Below are positions 260 through 21,384 of a stretch of 64,000 nucleotides of DNA, in pieces. Numbering within the stretch: the first letter of the stretch is position 1; the number at the start of each line of letters is the position of its first letter. Under the pieces are notes generated by a model, which had not been told where the DNA came from, ran no database searches, and was given only the letters and a program-made list of their open reading frames with translations. Both the position numbers and the translations under genes were made by a program. This DNA is from a virus (lineage: Duplodnaviria > Caudoviricetes). The DNA is taken from positions 43,643 to 107,642 of the IMG/VR virus record IMGVR_UViG_3300028284_000003. The stretch is one strand, 5' to 3'.

Positions 260-272
260 AATTTAAAAATAG

Positions 273-346
273 TGGAGGATATCGGAGTCGAACCGATGAC
301 CTCCTGCGTGCAAGGCAGGCGCTCTAGCCAGCTGAGCTAATCCCCC
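273..346 (-). tRNA. tRNA-Ala(UGC)
   Basis: GGGGGAT TA GCTC AGCTGGCTA GAGC G CCTGC CTTGCAC GCAGG AGGTC ATCGG TTCGACT CCGAT ATCCTCC A: full cloverleaf, G3:U70, A73, CCA not encoded. Confidence 0.97.
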
Positions 347-4330: not shown

Positions 4331-4356
4331 TTATATACTAAAAAAATTAATTGTTT
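4331..4356 (-). promoter_or_regulatory. putative middle promoter AAACAA-N14-ATATAA
   Basis: Exact motif and spacing. Confidence 0.7.
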
Positions 4357-6893: not shown

Positions 6894-7145
6894 TCATATA
6901 TCTTTAGGATTTAACCAATCGTTTGCACAACATGAATTTAATATTTGAATTTCTTCATCGAGTTCATTAATATAATCTAATAATTTAGAGTTGTCAATTT
7001 GTAAGTCTAAATGTTGATCTACTAATAAAGCTTCTTTTTCTTTATAGTTTTTTTCTGAATTTTTTATATTTTTTCTTAAAATTATAATACACGATAAAAG
7101 AATTAAAATTATAAAAAATTGTACTAGTTTTAGTGCTTTTTTCAT
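6894..7145 (-). CDS. membrane-anchored coiled-coil protein
   Basis: N-terminal TM helix plus coiled coil. Confidence 0.6.
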   Translation of the reverse strand: MKKALKLVQFFIILILLSCIIILRKNIKNSEKNYKEKEALLVDQHLDLQIDNSKLLDYINELDEEIQILNSCCANDWLNPKDI

Positions 7146-7155
7146 TTTGTTTTCT

Positions 7156-8448
7156 TTAAAAATCTCTGGCTTCTTCGTAGACTGCTTTAATTACTGGGAA
7201 CCTTAGTGAATGTTCTCCTTCTTGATTTGTAGTTTCTTCGAAGTATTGCACGGTTATGGTTTTGTTTAATATTTTATTAGGATTTTCAAAAAAGTTTCTT
7301 TTTTGTTCAAGACTAAAGCCACTACCAACTTGTACCCTATTGCCTTTGTGTTCTATAACTACATTTTTAAGCATCATTTCATCAACTTCTTTACCATCTA
7401 CAATTACCCTGTTGATAGCATTTTCAAGATCAACTACTGTATATTCTGCATCGAACATTTTTTTAACCTTTAAAATGTCTTGGCTTCTCTTACCTTTATA
7501 AACATCATCTTTTCTTAGCATCAAACCTTCCCAACCTTCTTTGGCTGCGATTGCCATTTGTTCATTTACCATGTCTTCACCTGTCGTTAAATACTGTTGT
7601 AAATATTTAATATACTTTAGATTTGGATCTCCTAGAATCATCTCAAGCGTCTGCAGCCTAAGACATAGTGGCTCTTTTGAAACTTTATTAGTAAAATCTT
7701 CTAGTGTAATTAAATCAAATGCTTGAAATAATGGCTTTTCAATCGTGTGATCTTTTCTTTTAATTTCTTTAATAATAGATTGAAAATCCTCGTTTCCATT
7801 CTTGTCTACCATACATATCTCGCCATCAATTACAACATGTCTAAGGTCTAGACTCTCTAATTCATGTCTAACATTTTCTAGTGTAAGAAACGATTTGCCA
7901 CTTCTTGAGTAGAGACTTACTTCTCCCCATTCATTAAAAAATGCAAGGCATCTAACTCCATCGAGCTTCCTACTAAGATACCAATCATCTTCTGTAAAAT
8001 TTACTTTCTTTTTAATTTTATCATCATAGGCTGATGCTAATGCAACGTCAAATGTAGGCACGCATCCTGGGATTACCTTATTAATCATTGAAGCAGTAGA
8101 TCTTGTTTTAAGATTCCTGTCTATGATATTATAAATAAGATCTGCATGTTCTTCGTTGTTACTAATAAACCCATTAACTTCTGCAAGTGCAGCATGGCCT
8201 GTAATTTCTCTATTATCTAACCTATCTAAGAGATTAAACAAATTATTGCCAGCATGAGAGTTCATTAGGTCACTTCTCTTCTTTAGATTTTTTGAAGTAA
8301 CATAATATTGTTTAAATGGTGAGTATACATACTTGAGCATTCTAGTGACCTCTAGATCATCCTTAAACTGTTCTAATACTTTTAACTTATCTAAGTTTGA
8401 GTTTGATGAATTACTTTGCTCTACAAAAGCTTTTATTTTTTCTAACAT
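7156..8448 (-). CDS. ATP-dependent DNA ligase
   Basis: KLDGVR, DGE, EGLMLR, KVK, GSGF, LRFP. Confidence 0.95.
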   Translation of the reverse strand: MLEKIKAFVEQSNSSNSNLDKLKVLEQFKDDLEVTRMLKYVYSPFKQYYVTSKNLKKRSDLMNSHAGNNLFNLLDRLDNREITGHAALAEVNGFISNNEEHADLIYNIIDRNLKTRSTASMINKVIPGCVPTFDVALASAYDDKIKKKVNFTEDDWYLSRKLDGVRCLAFFNEWGEVSLYSRSGKSFLTLENVRHELESLDLRHVVIDGEICMVDKNGNEDFQSIIKEIKRKDHTIEKPLFQAFDLITLEDFTNKVSKEPLCLRLQTLEMILGDPNLKYIKYLQQYLTTGEDMVNEQMAIAAKEGWEGLMLRKDDVYKGKRSQDILKVKKMFDAEYTVVDLENAINRVIVDGKEVDEMMLKNVVIEHKGNRVQVGSGFSLEQKRNFFENPNKILNKTITVQYFEETTNQEGEHSLRFPVIKAVYEEARDF

Positions 8449-8459
8449 ATTTTATCTTT

Positions 8460-8525
8460 GTTTTAATTATAATACTAATATAACTATAATCTTTGACCCG
8501 TGAAAACTTTTTAACACTTTTTTTC
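8460..8525 (-). promoter_or_regulatory. early repeat copy 3
   Basis: Same core, upstream of ligase. Confidence 0.8.
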
Positions 8526-8643
8526 ACTTTTTTTCCAGTGCCATGCACCTGAGCCTATATAATAATCTTTTACATATCCCATTGCTTCCATTTCATACTC
8601 AATAGGTGTGCCATTTCTTTTAGAAGCTGTCATTGCATAATAA

Positions 8644-8868
8644 CTATTCAAGTCCACTTTCTTCTTTTATAATTTTTAAAAGTTGATGTAAGTTTATTGC
8701 CATAATTACAAGGTTAGTAATTATAATAGGCATGCTTAAAATAAGTAAACCATAAATTGTAAATAAAAAACAACCTATTGTATTAACAGTTCTTAATCTT
8801 TTTATATTTTGTATAGTAAACGAAAATATAACTAGAGCAGTTGCCACGTATCCTAAAATTTCTATCAT
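8644..8868 (-). CDS. YgjV-like small inner-membrane protein
   Basis: GYVATALVIFSF..RLR.VNTIGC..F..YG, three TM segments. Confidence 0.7.
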   Translation of the reverse strand: MIEILGYVATALVIFSFTIQNIKRLRTVNTIGCFLFTIYGLLILSMPIIITNLVIMAINLHQLLKIIKEESGLE

Positions 8869-8999
8869 TTTTCTAATTCTTTTAATCTTGCTGGAATTAC
8901 ATGTGTAAAGTTACAAGTGTCGCAGCATCTTTTATTATTAACAGGCTCTGCGTTATTACCAAAGCCTGTTATTTTATTGTTACATATTGAACATTTCAT
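8865..8999 (-). CDS. 44-aa Cys-rich (Zn-finger-like) protein
   Basis: Manual ORF MKCSIC..GNNAEPV..RCCDTCN..VIPARL, after a middle promoter. Confidence 0.65.
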   Translation of the reverse strand: MKCSICNNKITGFGNNAEPVNNKRCCDTCNFTHVIPARLKELEK

Positions 9000-9004
9000 A
9001 TAGA

Positions 9005-9030
9005 TTATATGAAAAAATGTAGTTTTGTTT
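9005..9030 (-). promoter_or_regulatory. putative middle promoter AAACAA-N14-ATATAA
   Basis: Exact motif and spacing. Confidence 0.7.
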
Positions 9031-9229
9031 ATCTACCTAAAATCAATTTCTTAAAAAATGGAATTGAACTATAAATAGCAAGTGCCATAATTGTCCATCC
9101 CCACCATACACTAAATTGACTAGAATTTGGATCCATTATATCTCTATAACCCATTATTATTAAATAACAATTTATAAAACCTATTAAACCTTCGTTTTCA
9201 GTTATTCTTTTTATTATTTGTTGTTTCAT
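9029..9229 (-). CDS. small membrane protein
   Basis: Two hydrophobic segments. Confidence 0.6.
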   Translation of the reverse strand: MKQQIIKRITENEGLIGFINCYLIIMGYRDIMDPNSSQFSVWWGWTIMALAIYSSIPFFKKLILGR

Positions 9230-9289
9230 GTTTTTTTATTTTTATAATTAAACGTAACTTGATTTTATTAAATTGTATTTAATTGTTGA

Positions 9290-9315
9290 TTATATTAAAA
9301 AAGTTAACCTTGTTT
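9290..9315 (-). promoter_or_regulatory. putative middle promoter AAACAA-N14-ATATAA
   Basis: Exact motif and spacing. Confidence 0.65.
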
Positions 9316-9739
9316 ATTTTATAGGTAAACGTGTTGTAATTTCTTTAAGTAACTTATCTAGTGTTTGAGAACTCCACATGCCTGTTTTTTTCCAAGTATT
9401 TGTTAGTGCACTTTTTGTATTTTCAAATATTTCAATTCCAAGATCATGGTCGTAAATGCAAATTTCGTTAGTATTTCTATCAGTGTATGCAATATATAAG
9501 TTTTTACCTATGTATTTTTTATCTAATGTGGCCCTAGATCCTTTTAACTGGATTTGAATATTTTCACCATTAAGAAAATTATAGGCTATCATATCAGCAC
9601 CGTGTTTATCTGCGGTAATTAAATTACATACATATCCATATTCTACAAGCGTTGATGCTGTTTTTGCATAATTATATACTTCTTGTTCTTTTCCTATTAA
9701 ATTTGTGTAATTTACTTTTTCTTTAAATAAATGTTTCAT
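9314..9739 (-). CDS. hypothetical protein, possible PD-(D/E)xK fold
   Basis: GADMIAY..IQIQLK pattern. Confidence 0.5.
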   Translation of the reverse strand: MKHLFKEKVNYTNLIGKEQEVYNYAKTASTLVEYGYVCNLITADKHGADMIAYNFLNGENIQIQLKGSRATLDKKYIGKNLYIAYTDRNTNEICIYDHDLGIEIFENTKSALTNTWKKTGMWSSQTLDKLLKEITTRLPIK

Positions 9740-9741
9740 TG

Positions 9742-9933
9742 TTAATCGTTTTTAATTTTTATTTTGTGCCATTCTTGAGCAAACCAGCACATCATTTTCT
9801 TTTCCTTTCTAAGCATTCTTTTAGAAAGTTCAATAGCATATTTCAATCCAGCCTCTGTATTATCATGGTACAGCTCAGCTTCGAATTGCTCAATTAAACA
9901 TGCTATTGGTGTTTTTATTTGTTGATGTTTCAT
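9742..9933 (-). CDS. hypothetical protein
   Basis: ORF on coding strand. Confidence 0.6.
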   Translation of the reverse strand: MKHQQIKTPIACLIEQFEAELYHDNTEAGLKYAIELSKRMLRKEKKMMCWFAQEWHKIKIKND

Positions 9934-9936
9934 ATA

Positions 9937-10062
9937 ATTATAATTACATGTTTCTTGGGAAATTTACATAAAAATTAAAACTTTTTTAAAACTTATGTTT
10001 TTTGTATTTCCTTATATTATTATAATTACATGTTTCTTGGAAAATTTACATAAAAATTAAAA
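9937..10062. repeat. ~45-bp direct repeat, two copies
   Basis: ATTATAATTACATGTTTCTTGG(G/A)AAATTTACATAAAAATTAAAA at ~9937 and ~10019. Confidence 0.85.
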
Positions 10063-10084
10063 AAGACCCATTAAGGGTCTTTTA
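10060..10084. terminator. intrinsic terminator
   Basis: AAAAAGACCC-ATTAA-GGGTCTTTTT. Confidence 0.75.
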
Positions 10085-10114
10085 TTTTAAAACAATATAA
10101 TATGAATCTTATTG

Positions 10115-10582
10115 TTAAAAGTCGCCTGGAGCAACTTGCATACATGTTAGGTTGTTGTTTCTCCACATTTTTACAACTTTATCTCTGTCATCAAAGACAC
10201 AAACAATATTGCTTTTATCTGGAAATAAATCATCTAACCAATTTTGTTTAAGTTGATCATCTGGCTTAAACATCCAATCTTTGCCAGTTGGTCTCATCTT
10301 AATCACATGAAAAGGTACTTTATGTTTAACCAACCAACCCTTAGTAGTCAATTGCGTACCTTTACTTCTACCACTAAAGATAGCGATCATATGGCCAGAA
10401 TCTGCAAGAATTTGAGCCATTTTTATCACAGCATGGTTTGGCTGATCTAAACTGATATTCTTTGGGTCAAAAAATATGTCCCAATCTATTTTACCATTTG
10501 GCTTTGTTGCTAATTTTCTTCTTGCATCTATATTCGCTAAGGTTCCATCTAAGTCGAATATTACCCATTTTTGATCTGTCAT
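10115..10582 (-). CDS. HAD 3'-phosphatase (PseT/PNKP phosphatase-domain-like)
   Basis: DLDGT, SGR, MRP, FDDR, QVA.GDF. Confidence 0.88.
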   Translation of the reverse strand: MTDQKWVIFDLDGTLANIDARRKLATKPNGKIDWDIFFDPKNISLDQPNHAVIKMAQILADSGHMIAIFSGRSKGTQLTTKGWLVKHKVPFHVIKMRPTGKDWMFKPDDQLKQNWLDDLFPDKSNIVCVFDDRDKVVKMWRNNNLTCMQVAPGDF

Positions 10583-10590
10583 TTTTTTAC

Positions 10591-10660
10591 GTTTTAAATT
10601 TATAATACTAATATAACTATTTTCTTTGACCTGTGAAAATTTTTAGGCAACTTTTTTCAA
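10591..10660 (-). promoter_or_regulatory. early repeat copy 4
   Basis: Same core; overlaps 3' end of upstream ORF. Confidence 0.75.
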
Positions 10661-11023
10661 CATTTTTTTAGTTGCATAATTTAGAATCTTTTTAAGTCTT
10701 TCTTCTCTTGTAAGAAGCATGATTCTTTCTTTACCTACCCAATTATAAGTATCTCCAGTTTCTTGACTTTTCCAAGATGCTGGATAAGTTTTAGTTGGGT
10801 TTAATTGCCAGCAAGTATCTTGTAGTTTTTTATTATCTGACCTTCTAGTCCAATATCTTATTTTTCTAACATAGCCAGTAGAATATTCTGCTACTGTTTC
10901 TCCAGTCTTTAGTCTCCACATTGAAGTACCATTTTTCTTTTGTGTTTTAGATGAGATATTTTTTGCACCCATTGTTTCTAAAACTTCTTCGTATATTTTT
11001 TCTTTACTTTCCATTATTTTCAA
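10643..11023 (-). CDS. hypothetical protein
   Basis: ORF downstream of early repeat. Confidence 0.7.
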   Translation of the reverse strand: MKIMESKEKIYEEVLETMGAKNISSKTQKKNGTSMWRLKTGETVAEYSTGYVRKIRYWTRRSDNKKLQDTCWQLNPTKTYPASWKSQETGDTYNWVGKERIMLLTREERLKKILNYATKKMLKKVA

Positions 11024-11055
11024 GTGTTAATTTGTGATTAATTCATTTTGTTTAA

Positions 11056-11138
11056 GTTTTAATCATAATACTAATATAACTATAATCTTTGACATAAAAA
11101 AATCTAGAGGCAACTTTTTTCAAAAAGTTATGAACAAT
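11056..11138 (-). promoter_or_regulatory. early repeat copy 5
   Basis: Core conserved, GACCCGTG segment diverged. Confidence 0.75.
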
Positions 11139-11412
11139 TAAACGTTTAAAGTTTCCCAAAAGTCGTTATTTGCTTTTACTTCTGCTTCTTTATCGGTATA
11201 ACCTAAGTCTAGATACTTTTGAAAAAACTTTTCCAAAAGATTATTATTTATTACATTAATCATCTTTGTGTTTTTTAAACAGTTCTTCCCATTCATCCAT
11301 GGTATAGTTTAACATTCTTCTAATTCTTGTTCTTTCTGTTTCAGAGCCTCGTAGCCAACCCATTAAATAGGTTGCTGCGATTACTCCGATTATTGCAATT
11401 AAATCCGACATA

Positions 11413-11871
11413 TTATTTGTTTATTTTATATGCGTAACTGGCATGGGTTTTTGTGTTCATGCTTTTCCATAAATCATAGTCAACCATCTTTTTCCAAGCA
11501 TTGTGCATGTGAGTTACTTTTAAGTTGTTTAAGAATGTTTTATCTATTGAGTAAAATTTACCACCTTTAGTAGTTAATACATTAAACCAATGTTCAGAAC
11601 CATCTTTGAATTTTTTTAATACCTGTACATTATCTAAAAAAGTATAAGTTGATGAGATAAATCTTTCAGGAGTAGCCGTTTGGTCACTGATATTTAAAAA
11701 TCCAGCTTTACATTTACAAGTATATCTGAATTTGTATTCAACTCCTTCTTCTAAATGATTTGAAACTGTAAATTTTAAGTATTTACCTTTATTGTCTTTT
11801 TGAGTAACACTGCCAAAAAATACAGTATTGCTTCCTTCTAATTGTTGTTTTGATTTTTTTACTATTTCCAT
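11413..11871 (-). CDS. hypothetical protein
   Basis: ORF downstream of early repeat. Confidence 0.75.
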   Translation of the reverse strand: MEIVKKSKQQLEGSNTVFFGSVTQKDNKGKYLKFTVSNHLEEGVEYKFRYTCKCKAGFLNISDQTATPERFISSTYTFLDNVQVLKKFKDGSEHWFNVLTTKGGKFYSIDKTFLNNLKVTHMHNAWKKMVDYDLWKSMNTKTHASYAYKINK

Positions 11872-11880
11872 TTGTTTTAA

Positions 11881-11962
11881 GTTTTAATTATAATACTAAT
11901 ATAACTATAATTTTTGACACGTGAAAACTTTTTAACACTTATTTTTAAAAGTTATTAACAAT
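11881..11962 (-). promoter_or_regulatory. early repeat copy 6
   Basis: Same core. Confidence 0.8.
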
Positions 11963-12428
11963 TCCATTTTTTAAATTCTTCTATACTAGTGTTTTCACAT
12001 AAATGATCTTCGACTTCTAATAATCTTGCGGCCATGAATGTCATATTATCTATAACCTGTAAAACATCTTTGACTGAACTTAAATTAGTGCTCATTAATT
12101 TGTCTGCAATTGACTTAACTCCACCATTCATATGTTCAACATGAATTATTCTATCTATTTTAAAGTTATTTTTTAATTTGTGATTAAGTCTATAAATTTC
12201 AGAGGTTGTCATATACTCATTATAGTCACAACCTATTTCTTTTAATTTTTGTTGTAGTCTTTTTGTTAAAAGAACTTTGTAGGTTTTATGGATTCTTCTA
12301 ACCGCCCTACTTACTGAATCTCTTGCTGTAACAGTATGATAATCTTTAACATCTTGTAAAGCAGTTAAAGAACCATATAGTGAAACTGCTCTTGTATTTG
12401 TTTTAAATTCTTCTAATTGATTTTTCAT
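11955..12428 (-). CDS. hypothetical protein
   Basis: ORF downstream of early repeat. Confidence 0.7.
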   Translation of the reverse strand: MKNQLEEFKTNTRAVSLYGSLTALQDVKDYHTVTARDSVSRAVRRIHKTYKVLLTKRLQQKLKEIGCDYNEYMTTSEIYRLNHKLKNNFKIDRIIHVEHMNGGVKSIADKLMSTNLSSVKDVLQVIDNMTFMAARLLEVEDHLCENTSIEEFKKWNC

Positions 12429-12430
12429 AG

Positions 12431-12513
12431 TTTATAATTATAAATACTAATATAAACAAAAAAAGCGACCCGTGAAAATCCAGGGTCGCTTTTTTTTAAA
12501 ACTTATTAACAAT
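12431..12513 (-). promoter_or_regulatory. early repeat copy 7, fused with a terminator hairpin
   Basis: AATACTAATATAA and GACCCGTGAAAA retained inside AAAAAAAGCGACCC..GGGTCGCTTTTTTT. Confidence 0.7.
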
Positions 12514-12586
12514 TTAACCATACCAGTATAATAGATAAAGTGCAATAGATGCTGCTATTAAATATGCAGCCCATGTTAGTGTGTAT

Positions 12587-13438
12587 TTATAAACCTAGTT
12601 CGTTCATTTCATCAATATCGATACCATGTGTATCAAACCACCAGTCTTTGTCTTTATCTTGGTGCTTTTCCTTAAGTCTAAGATACCTAAGTTTTGTTTT
12701 TTCTTGTCTTTCAACTTCTCTCTTAAAAAATGGATGATCCATATAACCATTATTATTGTATAAGATTCTAAGAAGTTTACGAAGTACATATCCTTGTTTC
12801 TGTGGACCTGGCTTATAACCAGAATCTGCTATCTTTAAAATAGTCTCTTCAAGTGTCTCGTTTGCACTCTTTACCTCAGTACCATTAACTATAGCCTCAA
12901 GTCTTTCAAGTCCAAACCCGACATCTATAAATTCATCTGACGTATTTACTATATTACCTATTTCTATTCCTTTATAGTAAAACTCTGTACAATAACCTCC
13001 CATTTCTCCATCGGTCCAAATACATTCGTCGTCTAATTTTAATGGAGTTTTATAAATATCATACATCCATTTCCAATTATCAAACTTATCAGAATGAATT
13101 GTTGCACAGTCTACTTGGATTTTAAGTTCTTCTTGTACAAATTCCATCCAAAATTCAACGGCTTGGTTAACTGTCATTTCTCCAAAACTAAAAAGACCTA
13201 ACATGTTAAAGTATAAAAGATGGCTTCCATCTCCTATCTCGTCAATGTCCTGTAGTCTTAAACAGGATTGAACATTTGCAACTGTAGTATTATCTGGATT
13301 TTTAAAACGATCTTTAAACTGCTGCATGCCAGCAGGACAGAAAAGCGTTGTATCATCATAGGGTCTTACATGATTATCCATTTGAAAAGCAATTCCTTTC
13401 TTTTCACAATATGTAATGTATTTTTGTAAAACGTTCAT
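12587..13438 (-). CDS. alaS: minimal alanyl-tRNA synthetase (catalytic plus compact tRNA-recognition part; no editing or C-Ala domain)
   Basis: DDTTLFCPAGMQQFK, QSCLR..HLLYFNMLGLFSFG, CTEF, EIGNIV, IDVGFGLERL, GYVLRK, FDTHG match AlaRS motifs in order. Confidence 0.88.
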   Translation of the reverse strand: MNVLQKYITYCEKKGIAFQMDNHVRPYDDTTLFCPAGMQQFKDRFKNPDNTTVANVQSCLRLQDIDEIGDGSHLLYFNMLGLFSFGEMTVNQAVEFWMEFVQEELKIQVDCATIHSDKFDNWKWMYDIYKTPLKLDDECIWTDGEMGGYCTEFYYKGIEIGNIVNTSDEFIDVGFGLERLEAIVNGTEVKSANETLEETILKIADSGYKPGPQKQGYVLRKLLRILYNNNGYMDHPFFKREVERQEKTKLRYLRLKEKHQDKDKDWWFDTHGIDIDEMNELGL

Positions 13439-13576
13439 CTATCTTCCTCCTCTACTATAAGGCTTTTTATATTTTTTTGAATTTTTATTTTTTGAACTTG
13501 ACTTAGCATGAACTCCTTTTCTTTTAATTTTTAGGCCATCCATGTTTCCATTTCCTTGTACTTTTACTCTTGACAT
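13439..13576 (-). CDS. 45-aa highly basic peptide
   Basis: Manual ORF MSRVKVQGNGNMDGLKIKRKGVHAKSSSKNKNSKKYKKPYSRGGR; its TAG abuts the AlaRS ATG. Confidence 0.65.
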   Translation of the reverse strand: MSRVKVQGNGNMDGLKIKRKGVHAKSSSKNKNSKKYKKPYSRGGR

Positions 13577-13594
13577 TTTATTTAATTTAAATAT

Positions 13595-13819
13595 TTAACT
13601 TATTTGAGTTGCTGAAATACTTGACTTTTTAATATGTTCATTTAGTGCCTTACCTTGTGAATCAGCCAATGAAAACTTTTCATAAGTTTCTTGATTTACT
13701 GATTGATACATATAAGTAATTCCTGAATGAAAAGTTACAAGTAGTATTTCATCTTTAAAATTATATTGAGAAAGTTGAACCGTGCTTGATTCATAATATA
13801 TTGTTTCTGTTAATTTCAT
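13595..13819 (-). CDS. KTSC-domain protein
   Basis: SS...Y.....L.VTFHSG..Y.Y..V....YE.F..ADS.GK..N..IK pattern. Confidence 0.85.
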   Translation of the reverse strand: MKLTETIYYESSTVQLSQYNFKDEILLVTFHSGITYMYQSVNQETYEKFSLADSQGKALNEHIKKSSISATQIS

Positions 13820-13824
13820 GTATA

Positions 13825-13850
13825 TTATATATGAAACTATGTGTTTGTTT
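13825..13850 (-). promoter_or_regulatory. putative middle promoter AAACAA-N14-ATATAA
   Basis: Heads the KTSC-peptide-AlaRS operon. Confidence 0.7.
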
Positions 13851-16800
13851 AAATAGACACTCCTACTGTTTGAACTTGAACATCTCCTGATGTTAAAATA
13901 TTTTGAAGTCTTTTTATTTCTGCAATAAGCAGCTGTTGATCCATAACGTTTATTGAGTTATTTGAAGTAGAACTTGCAGTTCCTTCAGAACCTGAACTTC
14001 CACCACCAAATAGTGCAGCTGCTCCAGATTTAATAGTATTCATTGCTCCATCTATAAATGATTGATTTCCTTCTCTTGCTTCTTCGACTGTTCCACCAAA
14101 GTCTGCGATCATTAATGCAAGTTTCTCGACTGCTTTAATTAAATCATCACCAAGAGCTTCAATTGCATCTTCTCCTCCTTGTTCAGAAAGATATGCAAGT
14201 GCCTTAAACATATTTGAAGTTTCTACAATTGCTTCAATATCTAAATTATTTGTAGTTTCTCCAATCATTTGATAAGACTTAGCAACATGTCTTAAATCAT
14301 CTTTAATATCACTTAAATCAAGATCTTCAAGATCTTCTATAAAGTTTAACATACTTGGGAAACCTTCAACATTTACTTGCCCTAGAGTTTGCATACTCTT
14401 TGAAATATCTTTAATTGCTTGTCCAACAATTACATGATTTCCAAATTTACCAGATTCTGCAATAAGATCTTCTGCATCGTCTAAATCTAAATCATCCATT
14501 CTTACAATAGCACTGCTTATTATTTTAAAAGCCATTGAAGTCTGTGTAAGAGTTGTTGGTATTTTTGATACCTTTTCAATAAACATAGACACGTTATTCA
14601 AAGATTCTGTCTCTTTACCCATTGCTATCATAGTGTCTATTCCTTGTTTTCCAAAACGAAACGCGTTGAAAAAACTTCTAATTCCTCCTGATACTGTGTA
14701 AACTGCATTACCGTCTACCTTTGAAAGTTCTTGTAAACTTTTTGCAAATTCTAATAAAAATTCGTTTATTTTTTTAGGAGCATCTGGTGCACTCTTATTA
14801 AATTCTGCCATTGCTTTAACTATGTTACCAAGAATTGGTGGCATTTGTTCAGCTATTGAAAGTCCCCTAGACGCGTCACCTTTTTCTTTCCAATCTTTAT
14901 AAGTCTTTCCTATTGCTGCAAATCCTTCAACTAATGTAGCAACTAGTTTCATTATATTACTTCCTACCTTTTTTAACATATTACCTTGGGTTAAATCTAT
15001 TATCTTTGTAACCTTTTGAGGATTATTTGGATCCCCGTAAACGTTAAATTTAAGAGATGCCATATCTCTCATTCCATTTGCAATTCCTCCAATTGCTCCT
15101 CCTAGTCCTTGTACCATTGAAATACCAGCTGCAACTGGATCTTTTTTGCCAGCACTCTTTATCATCTGCCATAAACTCTGCTCACCTTTATCGTATTTTT
15201 TACCAATATTTCCAAAAGCTCCACTTAATGATTCTACCATCATGGCTACGTTTGTATTAATCGCAGACATGGCAGCTCCATCTAGTGTAATAATTTCTTT
15301 TATACTTCCATCTGGATTATATGTTGGGAATTGTAGTTTCGCCATTTTTGACATTCCAAATGCAATGCTACTAAGAGCATTACCCATTCCCATTACACTC
15401 TGAATTCCTTGATAAACAAGTCCTCCACCTAACCCAAATAAACCAGCTCCTCCATATTCTTTACCTATTCTTGCAAATACATCTGCAAGGGTATTAATAA
15501 TATTTTCCATTTGAATTGGGAATGTTTCATAATTTATGTCTAGTCCTTGGAATTTTTCAATTCCTTTACCTATAGTGACCATCGCAGCTCCTGCGACTAG
15601 CATTGCGCTTGAACCAACTAATATTGAGGCTGCTCTAATTGGATCCCACATAAACGAGTACCCGACTGCTGATAATAATTTTTCTAAATTAGAAACACTT
15701 CCTCCTAACAATCCTGTATCTCCACTAGGTGCTAACATGTTTTTCCAACCAGTTCCTTGAAATACCTTGCTCATTACCATTAAACCTGCTCCTATTACTA
15801 CCAATGCTGTACCTGCAACTAGCATAGATGCTGCACCTGCTAATATTAATGGAGCAACTGCACCTGCAGCTGCCATTGCTAAACCTAAGCCGACAATAGT
15901 TATACCAACCTGGGCTAAAAATTCCCATGGACTATCAAGTCCTTTTATTGCATCTGCGAATATTTTAATACCTAACGCTATTCCAATTAGTGCTAAGGCA
16001 GAAAATCCCATTACTAATGCACCTATATAAACATTACCAGCAAATTTACCAATAAGTGCAAATGCAAGACCTACGCCTATTACTGTCAACCCAACTAATC
16101 CAATTGTCATTAGAGTCTTCTCATCTGGTGGTAATAATACTGCAAACAGGGCCAATGAAACCCCTAGTGATAATATTGCTAGTCCTGTAAATACTAAAGC
16201 AGTTGACGCCTTTTCCATGGTCTTTGTAACTCCCATTTTTTCAAGAGCCATAAATGTGAGTCCAATAAGTGTTATAACTATTCCTGCTAATACTGCACCT
16301 ACTATTGCAAATGGATAAACTAATGCTGAAAGTGCAAGTTTTATACCAAATTGTAAAATGCTATTTCCAATATCACCTAATGCCTTTAAAGTATCTTGAG
16401 TCTCTTTATTCATTAATGGCTTAGATGCCCAAGCTAACGCCTTTGTTATTACAAATATACTGAGCGCAAAAAGAGGAGCCGCTATTACCCCTACTAATAA
16501 TAGAGGAGTTGCTAGTAATAAATATCCTGCAAATTCAAGTATTGCCTTTCCAAGACCTTTAATAGCAACTAGGCCTGTGCCTATTGCTTCCATTTTTTCT
16601 TTAGCCTCTTCTCCGCTGGTAGACATTTTATCAATAACCTCAGCTATTGCACCGAATCCCTTTGCTATCGATGTTAGACCCTTTTCACCAAGTAGTCTCC
16701 AAGCCAAAGCTTCTTTCATAGTAAGTCCACCAAAAAGAGATACTCTTTCTACTTTAGATTCTCTAGCATTTAATTGATTGATATTTTCTGCAATATCTTC

Positions 16801-16899
16801 AAGTAAATTGTACATTGGACCACCTGGATTTACAGAATCTGCAATTTCCCTCTGTGCCTCATAGCTTAATTTTTCAAATGGAGATTTAAACGCGCTCAA
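13849..16899 (-). CDS. tape measure-like protein
   Basis: 1016 aa, Ala/Gly-rich hydrophobic helical repeats, located after tube and chaperone genes. Confidence 0.65.
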   Translation of the reverse strand: MSAFKSPFEKLSYEAQREIADSVNPGGPMYNLLEDIAENINQLNARESKVERVSLFGGLTMKEALAWRLLGEKGLTSIAKGFGAIAEVIDKMSTSGEEAKEKMEAIGTGLVAIKGLGKAILEFAGYLLLATPLLLVGVIAAPLFALSIFVITKALAWASKPLMNKETQDTLKALGDIGNSILQFGIKLALSALVYPFAIVGAVLAGIVITLIGLTFMALEKMGVTKTMEKASTALVFTGLAILSLGVSLALFAVLLPPDEKTLMTIGLVGLTVIGVGLAFALIGKFAGNVYIGALVMGFSALALIGIALGIKIFADAIKGLDSPWEFLAQVGITIVGLGLAMAAAGAVAPLILAGAASMLVAGTALVVIGAGLMVMSKVFQGTGWKNMLAPSGDTGLLGGSVSNLEKLLSAVGYSFMWDPIRAASILVGSSAMLVAGAAMVTIGKGIEKFQGLDINYETFPIQMENIINTLADVFARIGKEYGGAGLFGLGGGLVYQGIQSVMGMGNALSSIAFGMSKMAKLQFPTYNPDGSIKEIITLDGAAMSAINTNVAMMVESLSGAFGNIGKKYDKGEQSLWQMIKSAGKKDPVAAGISMVQGLGGAIGGIANGMRDMASLKFNVYGDPNNPQKVTKIIDLTQGNMLKKVGSNIMKLVATLVEGFAAIGKTYKDWKEKGDASRGLSIAEQMPPILGNIVKAMAEFNKSAPDAPKKINEFLLEFAKSLQELSKVDGNAVYTVSGGIRSFFNAFRFGKQGIDTMIAMGKETESLNNVSMFIEKVSKIPTTLTQTSMAFKIISSAIVRMDDLDLDDAEDLIAESGKFGNHVIVGQAIKDISKSMQTLGQVNVEGFPSMLNFIEDLEDLDLSDIKDDLRHVAKSYQMIGETTNNLDIEAIVETSNMFKALAYLSEQGGEDAIEALGDDLIKAVEKLALMIADFGGTVEEAREGNQSFIDGAMNTIKSGAAALFGGGSSGSEGTASSTSNNSINVMDQQLLIAEIKRLQNILTSGDVQVQTVGVSI

Positions 16900-16921
16900 A
16901 TGTTTAACACTGTTTTTTCTT

Positions 16922-16929
16922 TATATATC
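16922..16929 (-). promoter_or_regulatory. putative late promoter GATATATA
   Basis: Motif recurs just upstream of structural genes. Confidence 0.6.
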
Positions 16930-17259
16930 TTAGATTTTTGGCATTTTAACGCTTGGCATCTTAGGAGATTTATATTGGCTCATATTTGGCATCTGTTTCT
17001 TATAATCACTATATTTCTCTTGCATTTGCTCATTCTGTTCTCCTTCTTTCTTCTGTTGATTCTTTAAATGATCTGAAAGATTTTTAACATAATAGAAATA
17101 CTCATAATAATCGAGATTATCTATTTCACTAGGCTGGAGATGTAAATGAAACCCCAGATAGAATTTAGTCTTAAAGAAGTTCTCCAGCGAGATCTGAAAT
17201 AATGAAAAGACTTTTGATTCCACCTGGGAACTGAAGAGGGACACTAACGTCTTCTCCAT
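16930..17259 (-). CDS. gp51-like tail/baseplate assembly chaperone, possibly expressed by frameshift
   Basis: ISLENFFKTKF..EIDNLDYYEY resembles the gp51-like ORF of T4-like phages; overlaps upstream gene in +1 frame. Confidence 0.55.
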   Translation of the reverse strand: MEKTLVSLFSSQVESKVFSLFQISLENFFKTKFYLGFHLHLQPSEIDNLDYYEYFYYVKNLSDHLKNQQKKEGEQNEQMQEKYSDYKKQMPNMSQYKSPKMPSVKMPKI

Positions 17260-18169
17260 CTACGTCTACTAACATTTCAGGCTCTGCGCCTATTTTCATT
17301 TTTTCTGCAAGTCTATAAGTCACCATATATTTCTTTTCATTCCATCCTTGGAATGCAACCTCAGAATTAAATATTTCTGTTTGATTAAATCCTCTCCAAT
17401 CAAGTTGAATGTATGGTAAGATTTGAATAAATGCTTGATCCCATCTTTTCTTCTTATCGTTTTGCTCTTTAATGTATTTTGTAACTTCTTCCATTACACC
17501 AATACAAGGTGGCTTCATTAAGATTTCACCTGAACTTTTAGTTTGAATTCTAAAACATCTTGCAACAGCATCATAATACTTTTCAATTTCTGCTGGAATT
17601 TCAGTAGTAACAAAGTTTTTTGTGGCTAATTCAACATCTTTAGTTGTTCCATAACTATTTTCAGCCTTTAACATTAATTTATTTTCAGCTTCCGGAAAAG
17701 TTAAATCTCTAATTTGTAAAAGAATTGCAATTCTATCTTCTTCTAAAAGATCTTTATAAGAAAGTTTCTTATTAGGAGATTCAATTCTCATACATGATTT
17801 AACAATACTATTTAATTTTTCTTCGATATCTAAAAGACTGTTTTCATTCATTGTTGAAAAATGTCTGATTTCAGTAACTTTTGCAGATCTAATAGAAATT
17901 TTAGTATCTTGTGGATAAAAACGTCCTCTAGAAAAAAGAGTTTCCATATCAACCGAGTGATAGCCTAAAACAAAATCAGACTTATCTGCCTTTTGAGTAG
18001 CATATCTTTCCATATTTACAGAACCTAAACCTTCTTTGTTAATTTTTTCTTCTATTGGATCAACTGTTTCCATAGTTTCATTATTAGTAGCATCTGTATT
18101 TTCAAATGCTCCACCTTCTTGTTCTTTATCGTTTAAGAACTTTTCAAAATCTTTGTTGTCTTCACTCAT
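17171..18169 (-). CDS. gp26-like baseplate hub/tail assembly chaperone
   Basis: SRGRFYP, DLLEEDRIAILLQIRDLTF; position between tube and tape measure. Confidence 0.65.
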   Translation of the reverse strand: MSEDNKDFEKFLNDKEQEGGAFENTDATNNETMETVDPIEEKINKEGLGSVNMERYATQKADKSDFVLGYHSVDMETLFSRGRFYPQDTKISIRSAKVTEIRHFSTMNENSLLDIEEKLNSIVKSCMRIESPNKKLSYKDLLEEDRIAILLQIRDLTFPEAENKLMLKAENSYGTTKDVELATKNFVTTEIPAEIEKYYDAVARCFRIQTKSSGEILMKPPCIGVMEEVTKYIKEQNDKKKRWDQAFIQILPYIQLDWRGFNQTEIFNSEVAFQGWNEKKYMVTYRLAEKMKIGAEPEMLVDVDGEDVSVPLQFPGGIKSLFIISDLAGELL

Positions 18170-18187
18170 ATCGATGTGTTTATTAAA

Positions 18188-18213
18188 TTATATACTTTAA
18201 TTTTATTTTGTTT
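18188..18213 (-). promoter_or_regulatory. putative middle promoter AAACAA-N14-ATATAA
   Basis: Exact motif and spacing. Confidence 0.7.
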
Positions 18214-18400
18214 CAGAATTATTTTTTTTAATTTCATTTTGTATTAATTCTCTCACAAACGCACTAACAGATTTAGGCCTTTGTTTTTCGGCCATGGCCT
18301 TACTTAATATAATATGATTAAGTTCTTCAAACTCTGGTTCAGTTAAAAGTACTTGAATTTTTTTAATTAATTTATTTACTATGTAGTCTTCCTTTGACAT
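18203..18400 (-). CDS. small ribbon-helix-helix-like protein
   Basis: KKIQVLLTE..SVSAFVRELI. Confidence 0.55.
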   Translation of the reverse strand: MSKEDYIVNKLIKKIQVLLTEPEFEELNHIILSKAMAEKQRPKSVSAFVRELIQNEIKKNNSETK

Positions 18401-18478
18401 ATTATTATAATATTATAATCTTTTTTCTAGATAAAAAATAGAGAAGACTTAAATCCTCTCTATATTTTAATCTGTTTT

Positions 18479-19033
18479 TTAAACTAGTTCTTCTGCGAAT
18501 GTGTCACATCTCCATACAACATCCATTGTTTGAGGTTCTCCATTTGCATAATCAAAATCAGTACCTGGATTAACTGCAGAACTGATAAAGCAATCTTGTA
18601 GAGTTACTTTTCTGTAAATGTCACCTGCTCTGTTAAATTGAACTATAACAATTTGACCTACATAATCTTTTTTAAGACCTGTTTCTCCAGTTTCTGGATT
18701 ATATTGAAGTCTATGCCAATCTCTTAACGTTTTATATACATACATTTGATTTGCATCATTTAAGTTTAATGAAAATTGAACTGTAACGTCAATAAATGAA
18801 TCAGCTGGAATACCTGCAAAGGATCTTGATGACCATTTAAATTTTTGAGCAACAGGATCTCCTGCTTTATTAAGTTCTAAACCAGTAACTGTATTAACGT
18901 GTTGAATTAATAATTCTTGACCGCCAACACCTGCTGGTGGAAGAATAGTTATTTCAAACATGTTCATTAATACTGGTTCAAAGTTCTTACCTTTCTTACT
19001 AGTTTGATCGTTTGAATAATGTGGTAATGCCAT
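18479..19033 (-). CDS. tail tube protein (gp19-like)
   Basis: 184 aa directly after sheath; LKKDYVG.IVIVQFNRAG. Confidence 0.85.
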   Translation of the reverse strand: MALPHYSNDQTSKKGKNFEPVLMNMFEITILPPAGVGGQELLIQHVNTVTGLELNKAGDPVAQKFKWSSRSFAGIPADSFIDVTVQFSLNLNDANQMYVYKTLRDWHRLQYNPETGETGLKKDYVGQIVIVQFNRAGDIYRKVTLQDCFISSAVNPGTDFDYANGEPQTMDVVWRCDTFAEELV

Positions 19034-19056
19034 TTTGTTTTTCTTTTATTTTTAAT

Positions 19057-19064
19057 TATATATC
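19057..19064 (-). promoter_or_regulatory. putative late promoter GATATATA
   Basis: Upstream of tube gene. Confidence 0.6.
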
Positions 19065-19083
19065 TTTAAAATTTCTATAAAAC

Positions 19084-19110
19084 TAAGAGGGTATGTTTCA
19101 ACCCTCTTAA
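19084..19110. terminator. hairpin/terminator after sheath gene
   Basis: TAAGAGGGT..ACCCTCTTA. Confidence 0.6.
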
Positions 19111-19122
19111 TAAAATTTATTT

Positions 19123-21384
19123 TTAGAAGTTACCTGATGCGATTTCTCCAGTATTTAAGACTGTTGTTCTATGAACTATAATCTCTAAACCTTTAACTGG
19201 TTCAACAAATGTATCTAAGATACCGATATTATTATCGATAACTTCATTAGTATTGTTTGTTTGATCCATTACGTTTTTAAAAGCATATACCCCTTGATCA
19301 GAAAGAACTCCTTCCATAAATGAATCGGCTAAAGTTTTTATTTCTAATCTCGTCTGTGCTGTGTTAAATTCAAAAACATAACCTTTAAGAATATCTGCAA
19401 TTCCGTTTTCTATAAAAATTAATACTTCTCTTACGTGAGCAGAACTTAAAGCTGATTTTACAGACTGCTGTGCAGTTTTATTACCTTTAATTACAAGACC
19501 AACTCCTCTTTCGAATACGATTGGGTTATAACCAAATGGTTCTAAGTTATCTCTATCTGATTTATCAAATGGATATTCAGCTCCAATTACATTAGTACCT
19601 GCAATAACTCCTCTTCTTGGACCTGCAACGATTGACCATGGTAATGAATCTGTAAATTTATCAATATAGTTATTTGATACATAAGCAGCTGGTGGAACAA
19701 CTGTTATTTTTCCATTTTCTCTAACATTTAAACCAGGACCATAGTAGAATCCGTAGCTTGCACCGTCATTAATTGAAGGTAAAGAATATGTAGCTGTTGG
19801 ATTTTGTGATAAATCACCTCCGTCTTTTACAAATCTTGTTTCAAAACTTTTAGTAGATGCATCTTTAAAAGATGGATCTGTAGATTTTTTAAATTCTTCA
19901 ACTGTTGGTGCATTTAAGATACAAGAAACATTTTGTCTCTCTTTTGCAATTTGAGTAAGTTCAACTTTGTTTAAAATACCAGCTTCATATGATCCAAAAG
20001 AATCTACGATATATCTTAAATCAATAACATCTCTATCAACTAATGCAGCTTTAACACCTCCGCTTGAGAATGCAGTTAAACAACCTAGAATTGTTTGATC
20101 CGCAATTGCTGCTTTAGGAAGATTAAACATTTTATATTCCGTTGCAACGCTTTCAAATGATTTAACAGCAAGATCAGTAGCTGGATCAAATGCAGCATCA
20201 ACTGGCTGTGAACAACTCACAGTATAAGTAGTTGGTGCAATACCTGATTGAGAAATTCTTGTTACTCTAGCTAAAGTATCAGTAGCAGCTGCTGGCATAT
20301 AATCACCTACAGATAATGCTAATTCGTCATCATTTGCTGATGTAAATGTAAATGATGATCCAGATGCAGCAAATACAAAGTCTGTTGCTGAAAAATCAAT
20401 TGATCTAGCACCTGCACTTAAATTATATGAAAGTAATTTATGAGCAGTTGATGCGTCATATGCATTACCAATTAAGTCAGTGTTTCCTGCTTCTACTGCA
20501 TCTTCGTTAATAGCACAGAATAAACCTGTTCTTCTAGTTTCTGCATTAATTTGTTGTTCAATGTATAAACCATTACCTTCTAAATCTGTGAAAGCTGGGA
20601 TAATTGAACCAGTATATTGTGCTAATAAATTAACTGTTCTTTCATTAGTGAATGCAACTAATTCATCTTTTAATAAACCTGTTGAAGTAAAATAATCTCC
20701 ATAAACTGGATCTAAATCCATTGTAGAAGCTTGGAATTTACCTTGATATAATAAAACATCAACCATATAGTCTGAAATAAAATCAAACTCATTAATTCCA
20801 TCAGGAATATTTCCTTCACCGTACCATTCTCTTGCAGTAACATTAAAAGAAGGGTCAATATCTTGAGCTTGTCTAACAATAACTGAAAGATTACCTTGTC
20901 CAATATTTATTAAATTTAATGCAGTTTTTGAAGTTTCTAAATCTCCTAAAGTAGCTAAAACTTCTTGATCAGAAGGATACATGAATTTATCAGTATTGTG
21001 AAAATCTGTATAAGGTTCAGTACCTGTAGAATTTAAAGCTGTTGCATCGTTTCCATCAGTAACCATACTTGCAAATGAAGCTAAATCATTAGAATTAAAA
21101 TTAGCTAAGTTCATAGCTAAGATTGGACCTCTCTTTAATGCTTCTAAACATGATCTGTGAAAGAACATTCCTTTCTTTTCTAATTTTTTGTCGATTCCAC
21201 CAAAGATTAAAACAAAAGTTTCTGTATCTTCAACGTAAACCGGCGTGTTGTAAGGTCCCTTTCTTGAGTGACCTGCAACTAATCTTATTGTCTCAGCAGA
21301 TATACTTGATACCTGGGATTTATCAAATTCTAAACGGTATACACCACTAGATTTGAATTGTAATAATTGAGGACTAAGTGCCAT
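19123..21384 (-). CDS. tail sheath protein (gp18-like)
   Basis: SGVYRLEFD, KGPYNTP, PW..VAG.RRG, FEFN, DQTNNT.EVID. Confidence 0.93.
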   Translation of the reverse strand: MALSPQLLQFKSSGVYRLEFDKSQVSSISAETIRLVAGHSRKGPYNTPVYVEDTETFVLIFGGIDKKLEKKGMFFHRSCLEALKRGPILAMNLANFNSNDLASFASMVTDGNDATALNSTGTEPYTDFHNTDKFMYPSDQEVLATLGDLETSKTALNLINIGQGNLSVIVRQAQDIDPSFNVTAREWYGEGNIPDGINEFDFISDYMVDVLLYQGKFQASTMDLDPVYGDYFTSTGLLKDELVAFTNERTVNLLAQYTGSIIPAFTDLEGNGLYIEQQINAETRRTGLFCAINEDAVEAGNTDLIGNAYDASTAHKLLSYNLSAGARSIDFSATDFVFAASGSSFTFTSANDDELALSVGDYMPAAATDTLARVTRISQSGIAPTTYTVSCSQPVDAAFDPATDLAVKSFESVATEYKMFNLPKAAIADQTILGCLTAFSSGGVKAALVDRDVIDLRYIVDSFGSYEAGILNKVELTQIAKERQNVSCILNAPTVEEFKKSTDPSFKDASTKSFETRFVKDGGDLSQNPTATYSLPSINDGASYGFYYGPGLNVRENGKITVVPPAAYVSNNYIDKFTDSLPWSIVAGPRRGVIAGTNVIGAEYPFDKSDRDNLEPFGYNPIVFERGVGLVIKGNKTAQQSVKSALSSAHVREVLIFIENGIADILKGYVFEFNTAQTRLEIKTLADSFMEGVLSDQGVYAFKNVMDQTNNTNEVIDNNIGILDTFVEPVKGLEIIVHRTTVLNTGEIASGNF

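Follow-up and report, generated by a model that had tools for sequence, protein, structure and literature searches.

The 64,000-nucleotide stretch of DNA analyzed here, which we call the window, belongs to the IMG/VR virus record IMGVR_UViG_3300028284_000003 and carries at 12587..13438, on the minus strand, an open reading frame (ORF) that begins with ATG and encodes 283 amino acids followed by a stop codon. An earlier account of the same letters, hereafter the sequence-only reading, had taken this ORF for a miniature alanyl-tRNA synthetase (AlaRS) encoded by a phage. Both the ORF and its phage origin were borne out, the latter by the virion genes of the window (tail sheath, large terminase, portal, major head protein, and head protease) and by the 107,642-bp virus record itself. 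All listed window ORFs of at least 120 amino acids lie on the minus strand, and the GC content is ∼30%. CheckV rates the record as 37% complete, which implies a whole phage genome of roughly 290 kb.

The protein, which we refer to as the mini-AlaRS, falls into two parts. Residues 1-190 (12869..13438, minus) form a shrunken class II catalytic core, marked out by invariant alignment columns and by being the only part onto which GlyRS-alpha and other class II cores align. Residues 191-283 (12587..12868, minus) form a shrunken helical tRNA-recognition domain, recognized by its predicted secondary structure and by aligning with AlaRS chains only. This second part contains PGPQKQGYVLRK (residues 210-221; 12776..12811, minus), the counterpart of Escherichia coli PSNENRGYVLRR, and WWFDTHG (residues 266-272; 12623..12643, minus), which corresponds to E. 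coli LYDTYG. The chain stops 11 residues past WWFDTHG, in agreement with the ∼12 given by the sequence-only reading. A Shine-Dalgarno-like GGAGG (13446..13450, minus) lies 7 nt 5' of the ATG, which is abutted by the TAG stop codon (13439-13441) of a 45-amino-acid ORF upstream.

A shrunken AlaRS fold

The mini-AlaRS matches PF01411 (tRNA-synt_2c) with 80.9 bits against a gathering cutoff of 30.3 (E = 9.7e-23; residues 3-146 on profile positions 2-153), and a Pfam scan of the protein returned this family and no GlyRS-alpha family. The nearest solved structures by sequence are bacterial AlaRS catalytic fragments from Aquifex aeolicus (1riq/3htz; E = 3.7e-14), and weak extra stretches of the alignment with the A. 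aeolicus structures pair GFGLERL and GYVLRK with their AlaRS counterparts.

Structure prediction and comparison with AlaRS, a check proposed along with the sequence-only reading, gave a concordant picture. An AlphaFold2 model built from a 32-sequence family alignment reached a mean predicted local distance difference test score (pLDDT) of 93.9 and a predicted TM score (pTM) of 0.86, with zero residues below a pLDDT of 50. The top ranks of a Foldseek search with this model were held exclusively by AlaRS catalytic fragments, with a TMq of 0.77 to 0.78 to 9jc7 and to E. coli 3hxu, and VIA-align placed 282 of the 283 model residues on residues 2-417 of E. coli AlaRS (3hxu) with a Z score of 25. 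The next fold class, GlyRS-alpha, scored Z 16 and covered model residues 1-205 only. The C-terminal part of the model contains helices at 192-205, 214-228, 236-255, 264-271, and 275-280, and the part from 191 to 283 aligns with AlaRS chains alone, up to E. coli residue 417. Judged by the model, nearly every residue of the mini-AlaRS has a counterpart in the 441-residue AlaRS aminoacylation fragment, the canonical fragment being ∼135 residues longer over the same span.

The active-site residues were traced in a MAFFT alignment (numbered with Met as 1) in which family members and canonical AlaRSs linked the protein to E. coli K-12 AlaS. The E. coli protein is 876 amino acids long, as the sequence-only reading had it, and the order of the catalytic blocks is the canonical one, while loops between them are missing, again as it had described. 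Given the Pfam, A. aeolicus, and structural scores above, this resemblance is far beyond chance. The mapped positions (mini-AlaRS = E. coli) are Q57 = Q66, R61 = R70 (the motif 2 arginine), M79 = M93, W141 = W171, E152 = E184, E159 = E210, N162 = N213, V164 = V215, D172 = D236, G174 = G238, G176 = G240, and R179 = R243. We take the Arg, Trp, Asn, Val, Asp, and Gly residues among them to be those that hold ATP and alanine in E. coli AlaRS, the structural literature on which numbers each of these residues one lower. Conservation was scored over 200 family members that cover at least 85% of the query at 29 to 99% identity, drawn from 221 full-length sequences of which 207 were unique. Each mapped active-site position is conserved in 198 to 200 of them: R61 is Arg in all 200, the nearly invariant N162 is Asn in 198, and D172 is Asp in 199.

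This pattern bears on the possibility that the protein does not activate alanine at all and is instead a transferase that works on ready-made Ala-tRNA-Ala, or a regulator or decoy that binds tRNA-Ala or Ala-tRNA. There is a precedent in AcmF of ascamycin biosynthesis, a truncated AlaRS-like protein described as moving Ala from Ala-tRNA-Ala to a nucleoside sulfamate (PMC12945691), and phage enzymes that use aminoacyl-tRNA exist, since phage Mom is reported to consume Gly-tRNA for DNA modification (PMC13219725). However, AcmF as described lacks most of the residues that activate ATP and alanine, with the changes N219Q and D232E (PMC12945691), whereas the phage family keeps the counterparts of those lost residues, N162 and D172, together with the motif 2 arginine R61. 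The gene also lies in no conserved biosynthetic cluster. We therefore regard a protein without alanine activation as very improbable.

The segments of E. coli AlaRS that have no counterpart in the mini-AlaRS are, in the catalytic part, ∼160 to 165, ∼190 to 208 (the loop between the CTEIFY and EIWN strands), and ∼220 to 232 (a hairpin) and, in the tRNA-recognition helices, ∼258 to 284, ∼323 to 347, and ∼384 to 392, followed by everything past ∼415. In Archaeoglobus fulgidus AlaRS, a GGG motif at 193 to 195 is described as parting reactive from nonreactive CCA ends, and mutants in it as charging G3:C70 tRNA (PMC10036535). The E. coli counterpart of this "route separator" would be a Gly-Gly in the deleted 190-208 loop, and, if so, the mini enzyme would work without that device. 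A 334-amino-acid metagenome protein of the family matches PF01411 at 223.6 bits (profile positions 2-244), retains much more of the canonical catalytic core, and is equally short at its C-terminal end; it resembles a transitional form between canonical and mini-AlaRS.

In the tRNA-recognition part, P212 aligns to E. coli N303, which lies in PSNENRGYVLRR, and D269, T270, and G272 align to D400, T401, and G403, so that the sequence-only reading was right in stating that the D400 equivalent is kept and that the N303 position reads proline. Among the 200 members, the N303 equivalent is Asn in 90 (45%), Pro in 80 (40%), and Ser, Ala, or His in 8 each; the change from Asn to Pro is thus one of two normal states in the family. 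The D400 equivalent is Asp in 162, Glu in 15, and Asn in 7, the T401 equivalent is Thr in 192, and the G403 equivalent is Gly in 196. In GYVLRK, the Tyr (Y217) is kept in 185 members and the Arg (R220) in 177. In the mini family, constraint still acts on the motifs with which canonical AlaRS contacts the acceptor stem, and an enzyme that had given up tRNA would be unlikely to keep GYVLRK and DT(H)G.

The mini-AlaRS has neither an editing (tRNA_SAD) nor a C-Ala domain and extends to the position matching E. coli residue ∼417. A separate editing gene, which the sequence-only reading had suggested looking for, was found in none of five huge-phage genomes of 437 to 608 kb rated 97 to 100% complete: PF07973 (tRNA_SAD) had no match in any of the five, nor in the phage's own record, which at 37% completeness is not decisive, and C-Ala (DHHA1) had no separate search. 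All PF01411 matches in the five genomes fall inside the mini-AlaRS frame.

Family, selection, and descent

The mini-AlaRS belongs to a large family. A word-indexed protein search returned 1,317 proteins at an E value of ≤0.001, among which the 120 family proteins listed are 245 to 309 amino acids long and 54 to 90% identical, many of them marine. An exhaustive search of cluster representatives returned 2,364 at the same threshold and 46 at an E value of ≤1e-30; full-length relatives of 275 to 330 amino acids extend down to ∼32% identity, and canonical-length AlaRSs appear only from an E value of ∼1e-19. Annotation pipelines already label members of the family "alanine--tRNA ligase-related protein" or "alanyl-tRNA synthetase." In a scan of viral contigs, 84 relatives were confirmed and 80 loci were kept, several on contigs of 437 to 608 kb; the viral carriers are mostly jumbo or huge phages. 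Among GenBank phages, a megablast search with positions 8000-20000 of the window found no match, while at the protein level one record, a 634,780-bp uncultured phage, held a full-length relative with 53% identity and nine further matches were weaker, several of them annotated as alanyl-tRNA synthetase.

At least part of the 1.5-kb stretch is present in marine or seawater metagenomes of 14 studies, and contigs from four seawater metatranscriptome libraries cover positions ∼12594-13523 at ∼98% identity, which gives a weak hint of mini-AlaRS expression, given that RNA libraries can contain DNA. The seawater contigs leave the window sequence right at the 3' end of the gene (12588-12594). The mini-AlaRS gene is common to phages with differing flanks, and in close relatives it is 90 to 99% identical while three upstream genes are 49 to 87% identical.

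The ratio of nonsynonymous to synonymous substitution rates (dN/dS) is 0.04 to 0.11 against six close relatives, a mark of strong purifying selection, and the coding sequence (CDS) is intact and of similar length in 75 cases (74 loci and the window). These values exclude the pseudogene-like decay that would have spoken against the sequence-only reading. At one third of alaS length and far below the alaS equivalog cutoff, the ORF could be taken for a host alaS that was captured and has since become a decaying, functionless fragment or a pseudogene. Against this stand not only the signature of selection and the intact frames but also the size of the family with its narrow range of lengths, its single origin in the tree described below, the invariant catalytic residues, and a compact, confidently predicted fold without disordered remnants. 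The pseudogene reading is effectively refuted.

A tree was computed by maximum likelihood from 59 mini sequences together with the N-terminal regions of eight canonical AlaRSs, the mini set coming from 142 sequences dereplicated at 85% with lengths of 255 to 340 amino acids (viral) or 250 to 330 amino acids (cellular). The mini family lies on one side of a branch with 100/100 support that separates it from canonical AlaRS, and a quick tree agrees. With canonical AlaRS as the root, the earliest division separates an all-viral clade (97/91) from the rest, and 21 cellular rows group with 3 viral ones in a clade (98/96) that stands alongside viral clades. The well-supported branches force at least five switches of the cell label and at least six of the virus label, a count in which the direction of transfer was not formally tested. 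The mini-AlaRS that the sequence-only reading had described is thus real and phage-borne, but it is neither a one-off nor confined to phages, as it belongs to a large family with cellular carriers.

Gene neighborhoods in phages and cells

Directly upstream of the mini-AlaRS and in the same orientation lie the 45-amino-acid ORF (13439..13576, minus), which is very basic (pI 11.3), and a gene for a 74-amino-acid KTSC-domain protein (13595..13819, minus; PF13619 at 49 bits), predicted to bind RNA. This arrangement is kept in the six closest relatives and would suit a reading in which the mini-AlaRS is a subunit of a split or assisted AlaRS and needs a partner in trans, be it a host AlaX, a C-Ala-like protein, the KTSC protein, or the 45-residue peptide. 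Bacterial GlyRS-alpha, the closest non-AlaRS fold, is of similar size and needs its beta subunit for tRNA. Phage KTSC proteins, according to one account, may aid phage translation or ribosome rescue (PMC7824862).

The wider family argues against such a partner. The basic ORF and the KTSC gene adjoin the mini-AlaRS in those six relatives only, that is, in 6 of the 80 viral and none of the 76 cellular loci, as judged by tblastn and by a profile search of three rounds, and both were rejected as a general cofactor. The five near-complete huge-phage genomes offer no tRNA_SAD protein and no PF01411 match outside the mini-AlaRS frame, nor does the phage's own record hold tRNA_SAD. TuAlaRS, the AlaRS of Tupanvirus, which likewise has neither an editing nor a C-Ala domain, is described as working alone (PMC10036535). 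We consider dependence on a partner in trans improbable.

The phage has a tRNA-Ala gene of its own. In the window, Aragorn finds a tRNA-Ala(UGC) at 272..346 (minus) with G3:U70, A73, and no encoded CCA, and the whole record carries nine tRNA genes (Ser, Asp, Ile, Gln, Glu, Arg, Leu, Thr, and Ala). Alanine makes up 6.7% of the codons in 29 window ORFs, mostly as GCA (499) and GCT (284). GCA is a direct match for the UGC anticodon, and decoding of GCT by a tRNA with this anticodon would depend on wobble. The phage tRNA-Ala(UGC) is a probable substrate of the mini-AlaRS.

Over the 80 viral loci, counted without dereplication, tRNA genes occur in the fetched flanks of 34, with the nearest within 2 kb in 25. 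Within 2 kb, tRNA-Ala is found more often than any other identity (20 of 112), and overall it ties with tRNA-Glu for first place (34 of 279). With acceptor stems read by the best 7-bp register, G3:U70 and A73 are found together in 26 of 29 distinct neighboring tRNA-Ala calls, while G3:U70 occurs in 1 of 229 non-Ala tRNAs; the three exceptions are two 88-nt "AGC" calls and one tRNA with a poorly paired stem. In three phages of the deepest all-viral clade (L075, L078, and L079), pairs of CUA-anticodon tRNA genes, called "tRNA-Pyl" by Aragorn, lie within a few kilobases of the mini-AlaRS; they are possible amber suppressors, in which case stop codons would be recoded. In a 7,038-bp viral contig (L019), a tRNA array of Glu, Tyr, Glu, Ile, Gly, and Ala is mirrored on both sides of the mini-AlaRS, probably an assembly artifact of inverted duplication.

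Some jumbo-phage clades are reported to encode tRNA synthetases (PMC12619734). The five huge-phage genomes carry PF00587 in five, PF00152 in four, and PF00133 in four, and in one of them the mini-AlaRS sits inside a synthetase island at 388 to 423 kb. Several of these frames are, by what we take to be the canonical sizes, short (tRNA-synt_1 at 427 to 518 amino acids and tRNA-synt_2b at 215 to 301 amino acids), and huge phages may have shrunken synthetases in general. None of the three families was found in the window's own record (37% complete), and PF00587 and PF00133, searched in three mid-size relatives, were found in none: the nearest relative (75% complete), one rated 88%, and one rated 100%, the last a 279-kb genome with terminal repeats.

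Other genes of the window were noted in passing. A stand-alone PNKP-type HAD phosphatase domain (10115-10582, minus; PF25109, 104 bits) and an ATP-dependent ligase (phrog_114; 7156-8448, minus) lie 2 to 5 kb downstream of the mini-AlaRS and may form a nucleic acid end-repair pair; by tblastn, the phosphatase is present in four and the ligase in five of the six closest relatives, and the ligase also in one distant locus (L076). Between the tail-sheath region and the mini-AlaRS lies a gene for a 1,016-amino-acid Ala/Gly-rich protein (13849-16899, minus) with long hydrophobic stretches and no PHROG match; it is 49 to 63% identical in close relatives and could be a tape-measure or ejection-type protein. 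The phage also encodes a sigma-70-like factor with regions 2 and 4 (957-1565, minus) and a glycoside hydrolase family 16 protein (4347-5093, minus).

Cells carry the gene as well. When one genome per prokaryotic species was scanned, 76 cellular loci emerged. Most belong to Rhizobium, Neorhizobium, Inquilinus, Phyllobacterium, and Caulobacteraceae, and the proteins of these loci are 51 to 55% identical to the mini-AlaRS and ∼278 to 281 amino acids long. Two low-GC contigs of 3 to 4 kb from metagenome-assembled genomes nest among viral rows of the tree and may be misbinned phage DNA. In PLSDB, 90 Rhizobium plasmids hold the gene, annotated as "alanine--tRNA ligase-related protein," and a literature search for this Rhizobium protein found no paper. 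On pRL9 of Rhizobium johnstonii 3841 (RL_RS26335), the gene is isolated, flanked by two toxin-antitoxin modules and an ABC transporter. The modules are Phd/YefM-PIN and Xre-RES (7065-8822 of the extracted locus, L159), and tblastn finds them in only 8 to 14 of the 76 cellular loci. We found no conserved operon partner, as no pRL9 neighbor occurs in more than 19 of the 76 loci. A canonical AlaRS in a frame of 890 to 924 amino acids is also present in all three cellular genomes tested.

In a different reading, the protein adenylates alanine and passes it to an acceptor other than tRNA-Ala: a carrier protein, a small molecule, an envelope component, or a tRNA-like RNA such as transfer-messenger RNA (tmRNA). 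Synthetase-core paralogues with such an activity are known in the seryl-tRNA-synthetase-like amino acid:carrier-protein ligases. The invariant activation residues, the missing elbow-binding C-Ala domain, and the acidic character of the protein would all fit, a distinct job would explain why the mini form is kept next to the canonical AlaRS that all three cellular genomes tested possess, and the pRL9 copy lies away from tRNA and translation genes. Nevertheless, we think this reading unlikely: the protein conserves AlaRS-specific acceptor-stem helices along with GYVLRK and DT(H)G, no partner gene travels with it, six longer family members show no fused domain beyond PF01411, and the phage copies lie in tRNA/synthetase islands. 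A tmRNA acceptor would be charged by the same G3:U70 mechanism and is a variant of tRNA-Ala charging, not a true rival to it.

Proposed activity and known systems

The core of the sequence-only reading, an extremely compact, editing-less AlaRS that keeps its catalytic residues, is supported by sequence, fold, conservation, and selection, and the protein is predicted from these to be enzymatically active. Mischarging, relaxed tRNA identity, a counter to host defences, and a non-tRNA acceptor, which the sequence-only reading had also raised, are speculations about its function. It is clearly a true AlaRS by descent and by active site, with an architecture smaller than any characterized and a wide distribution that has gone unremarked. 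Our preferred explanation, to which we give a probability of about 0.6, is that it is an active, free-standing miniature AlaRS without editing that reads the acceptor stem only and charges tRNA-Ala with G3:U70. In this scheme, the core of ∼190 residues would bind ATP and L-alanine and make alanyl-adenylate with the residues of canonical AlaRS. The helical domain of ∼90 residues would dock the acceptor stem of a G3:U70 tRNA-Ala, either the phage tRNA-Ala(UGC) or that of the host, and the alanine would be passed to A76. With neither editing nor an elbow-binding C-Ala domain, recognition would be by the acceptor stem alone, and mischarged Ser- or Gly-tRNA-Ala would have to be cleared by host factors. 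In the phage, the enzyme would supplement the supply of Ala-tRNA-Ala during infection, in company with the phage tRNA genes.

The steps of this scheme differ in strength. Alanine activation is very likely because the active site is invariant, and transfer to G3:U70 tRNA-Ala is likely because the recognition motifs are conserved, the phage copies have tRNA and synthetase genes as neighbors, and TuAlaRS provides a precedent. A benefit to the phage is speculative.

Several observations weigh against the proposal of a tRNA-Ala-charging enzyme. The protein scores 82.7 bits against the NCBIfam alaS equivalog TIGR00344 and so misses its cutoff of 457.05, as expected because it has one third of the canonical length. 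The counterpart of N303 is proline (P212), and deletion of the 190-208 loop could alter or weaken discrimination of G3:U70. No obvious basic RNA-binding surface takes the place of C-Ala, as the whole protein has a pI of 4.84 and the helical domain is neutral with a pI of 6.8. In the flanks of 46 of the 80 viral loci there is no tRNA, tRNA-Ala is modestly enriched and comes nearest to the gene in no more than 5 of 34 loci, and no tRNA gene was found in the pRL9 neighborhood, the sole cellular locus scanned for tRNAs. Finally, every carrier has a canonical AlaRS at hand, the cells their own (in all three tested) and the phages that of their host, so that the benefit of a second AlaRS without proofreading is unexplained.

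More tentatively, we propose that the mini-AlaRS is the smallest natural free-standing AlaRS, at ∼60% of the length of TuAlaRS, and that it charges by the acceptor stem only without editing, an elbow-binding domain, or the large active-site loop, maybe with relaxed or altered specificity (G3:U70 minihelices, tmRNA-like RNAs, or mischarging with Ser or Gly). It would have arisen once and diversified in jumbo and huge phages, with at least five moves between viruses and cells and one large subclade settled in alphaproteobacteria, and it possibly exemplifies a broader trend toward smaller synthetases in huge phages.

AlaRS provides the textbook example of an "operational RNA code," in which one acceptor-stem base pair sets alanine identity. 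Its four-domain architecture has been described as conserved across biology (PMC10036535). If our explanation is true, an AlaRS of 283 amino acids defines how little protein specific aminoacylation requires, and it would bear on work on minimal synthetases and the origin of the code and on compact orthogonal synthetase/tRNA pairs. It would also reveal a translation component that jumbo phages carry even without a large set of synthetases. A second AlaRS without proofreading, conserved on Rhizobium megaplasmids, poses a functional question in a tractable model bacterium.

Among known systems, the aminoacylation fragment of E. coli AlaRS (residues 1-441, 3hxu) shares the fold over the whole mini protein (Z 25; 282 of 283 residues), the alanine- and ATP-binding residues, and the GYVLRR/K and DT(Y/H)G motifs. 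The mini form differs in being ∼135 residues shorter, in having Pro for N303, and in being free-standing where the fragment is a laboratory truncation; canonical AlaRS has editing and C-Ala domains, and the mini form has neither. GlyQ (GlyRS alpha), at ∼280 to 300 amino acids, is the closest non-AlaRS fold for the core (Z 16 over residues 1-205) but offers no match to the helical C-terminal part. The Rhizobium plasmid protein (WP_028743334.1, RL_RS26335) belongs to the same mini family and clade, with 51 to 55% identity over its full length and ∼278 to 300 amino acids, and is set apart by being cellular, in high-GC surroundings, alone without tRNA neighbors on pRL9, and accompanied by a canonical AlaRS elsewhere in the genome in the three cellular genomes tested. 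AcmF is likewise a truncated AlaRS-like protein, described as consisting of the same two domains, for aminoacylation and tRNA recognition, only; going by that description, it is set apart by the loss of the activating residues that the phage family keeps (PMC12945691).

A literature search, which left subscription journals and supplementary tables outside its reach, found no description of an AlaRS family of ∼280 amino acids, and the smallest characterized natural AlaRS that we found in print is TuAlaRS, with 461 amino acids. As reported, TuAlaRS has no editing or C-Ala domain but keeps motifs 1 to 3, charges both tRNA-Ala and a microhelix with specificity for G3:U70, and can replace the yeast AlaRS; its authors call it the only natural, normally working synthetase made of just an aminoacylation domain (PMC10036535). 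According to the same report, it has Pro and Thr at the positions of the conserved Asn and Asp, yet stays specific for G3:U70 (PMC10036535). The mini-AlaRS resembles it, as a natural viral AlaRS without editing and C-Ala domains and with Pro at the conserved Asn. The two nevertheless differ, as far as the published description of TuAlaRS allows a comparison. The catalytic and tRNA-recognition domain of TuAlaRS is described as "intact" and of canonical size, and the protein as related to the AlaRS of its amoeba host, whereas the phage protein is 178 amino acids shorter, keeps the Asp that TuAlaRS has lost, is closest to bacterial AlaRS structures, and stands in a large clade of its own.

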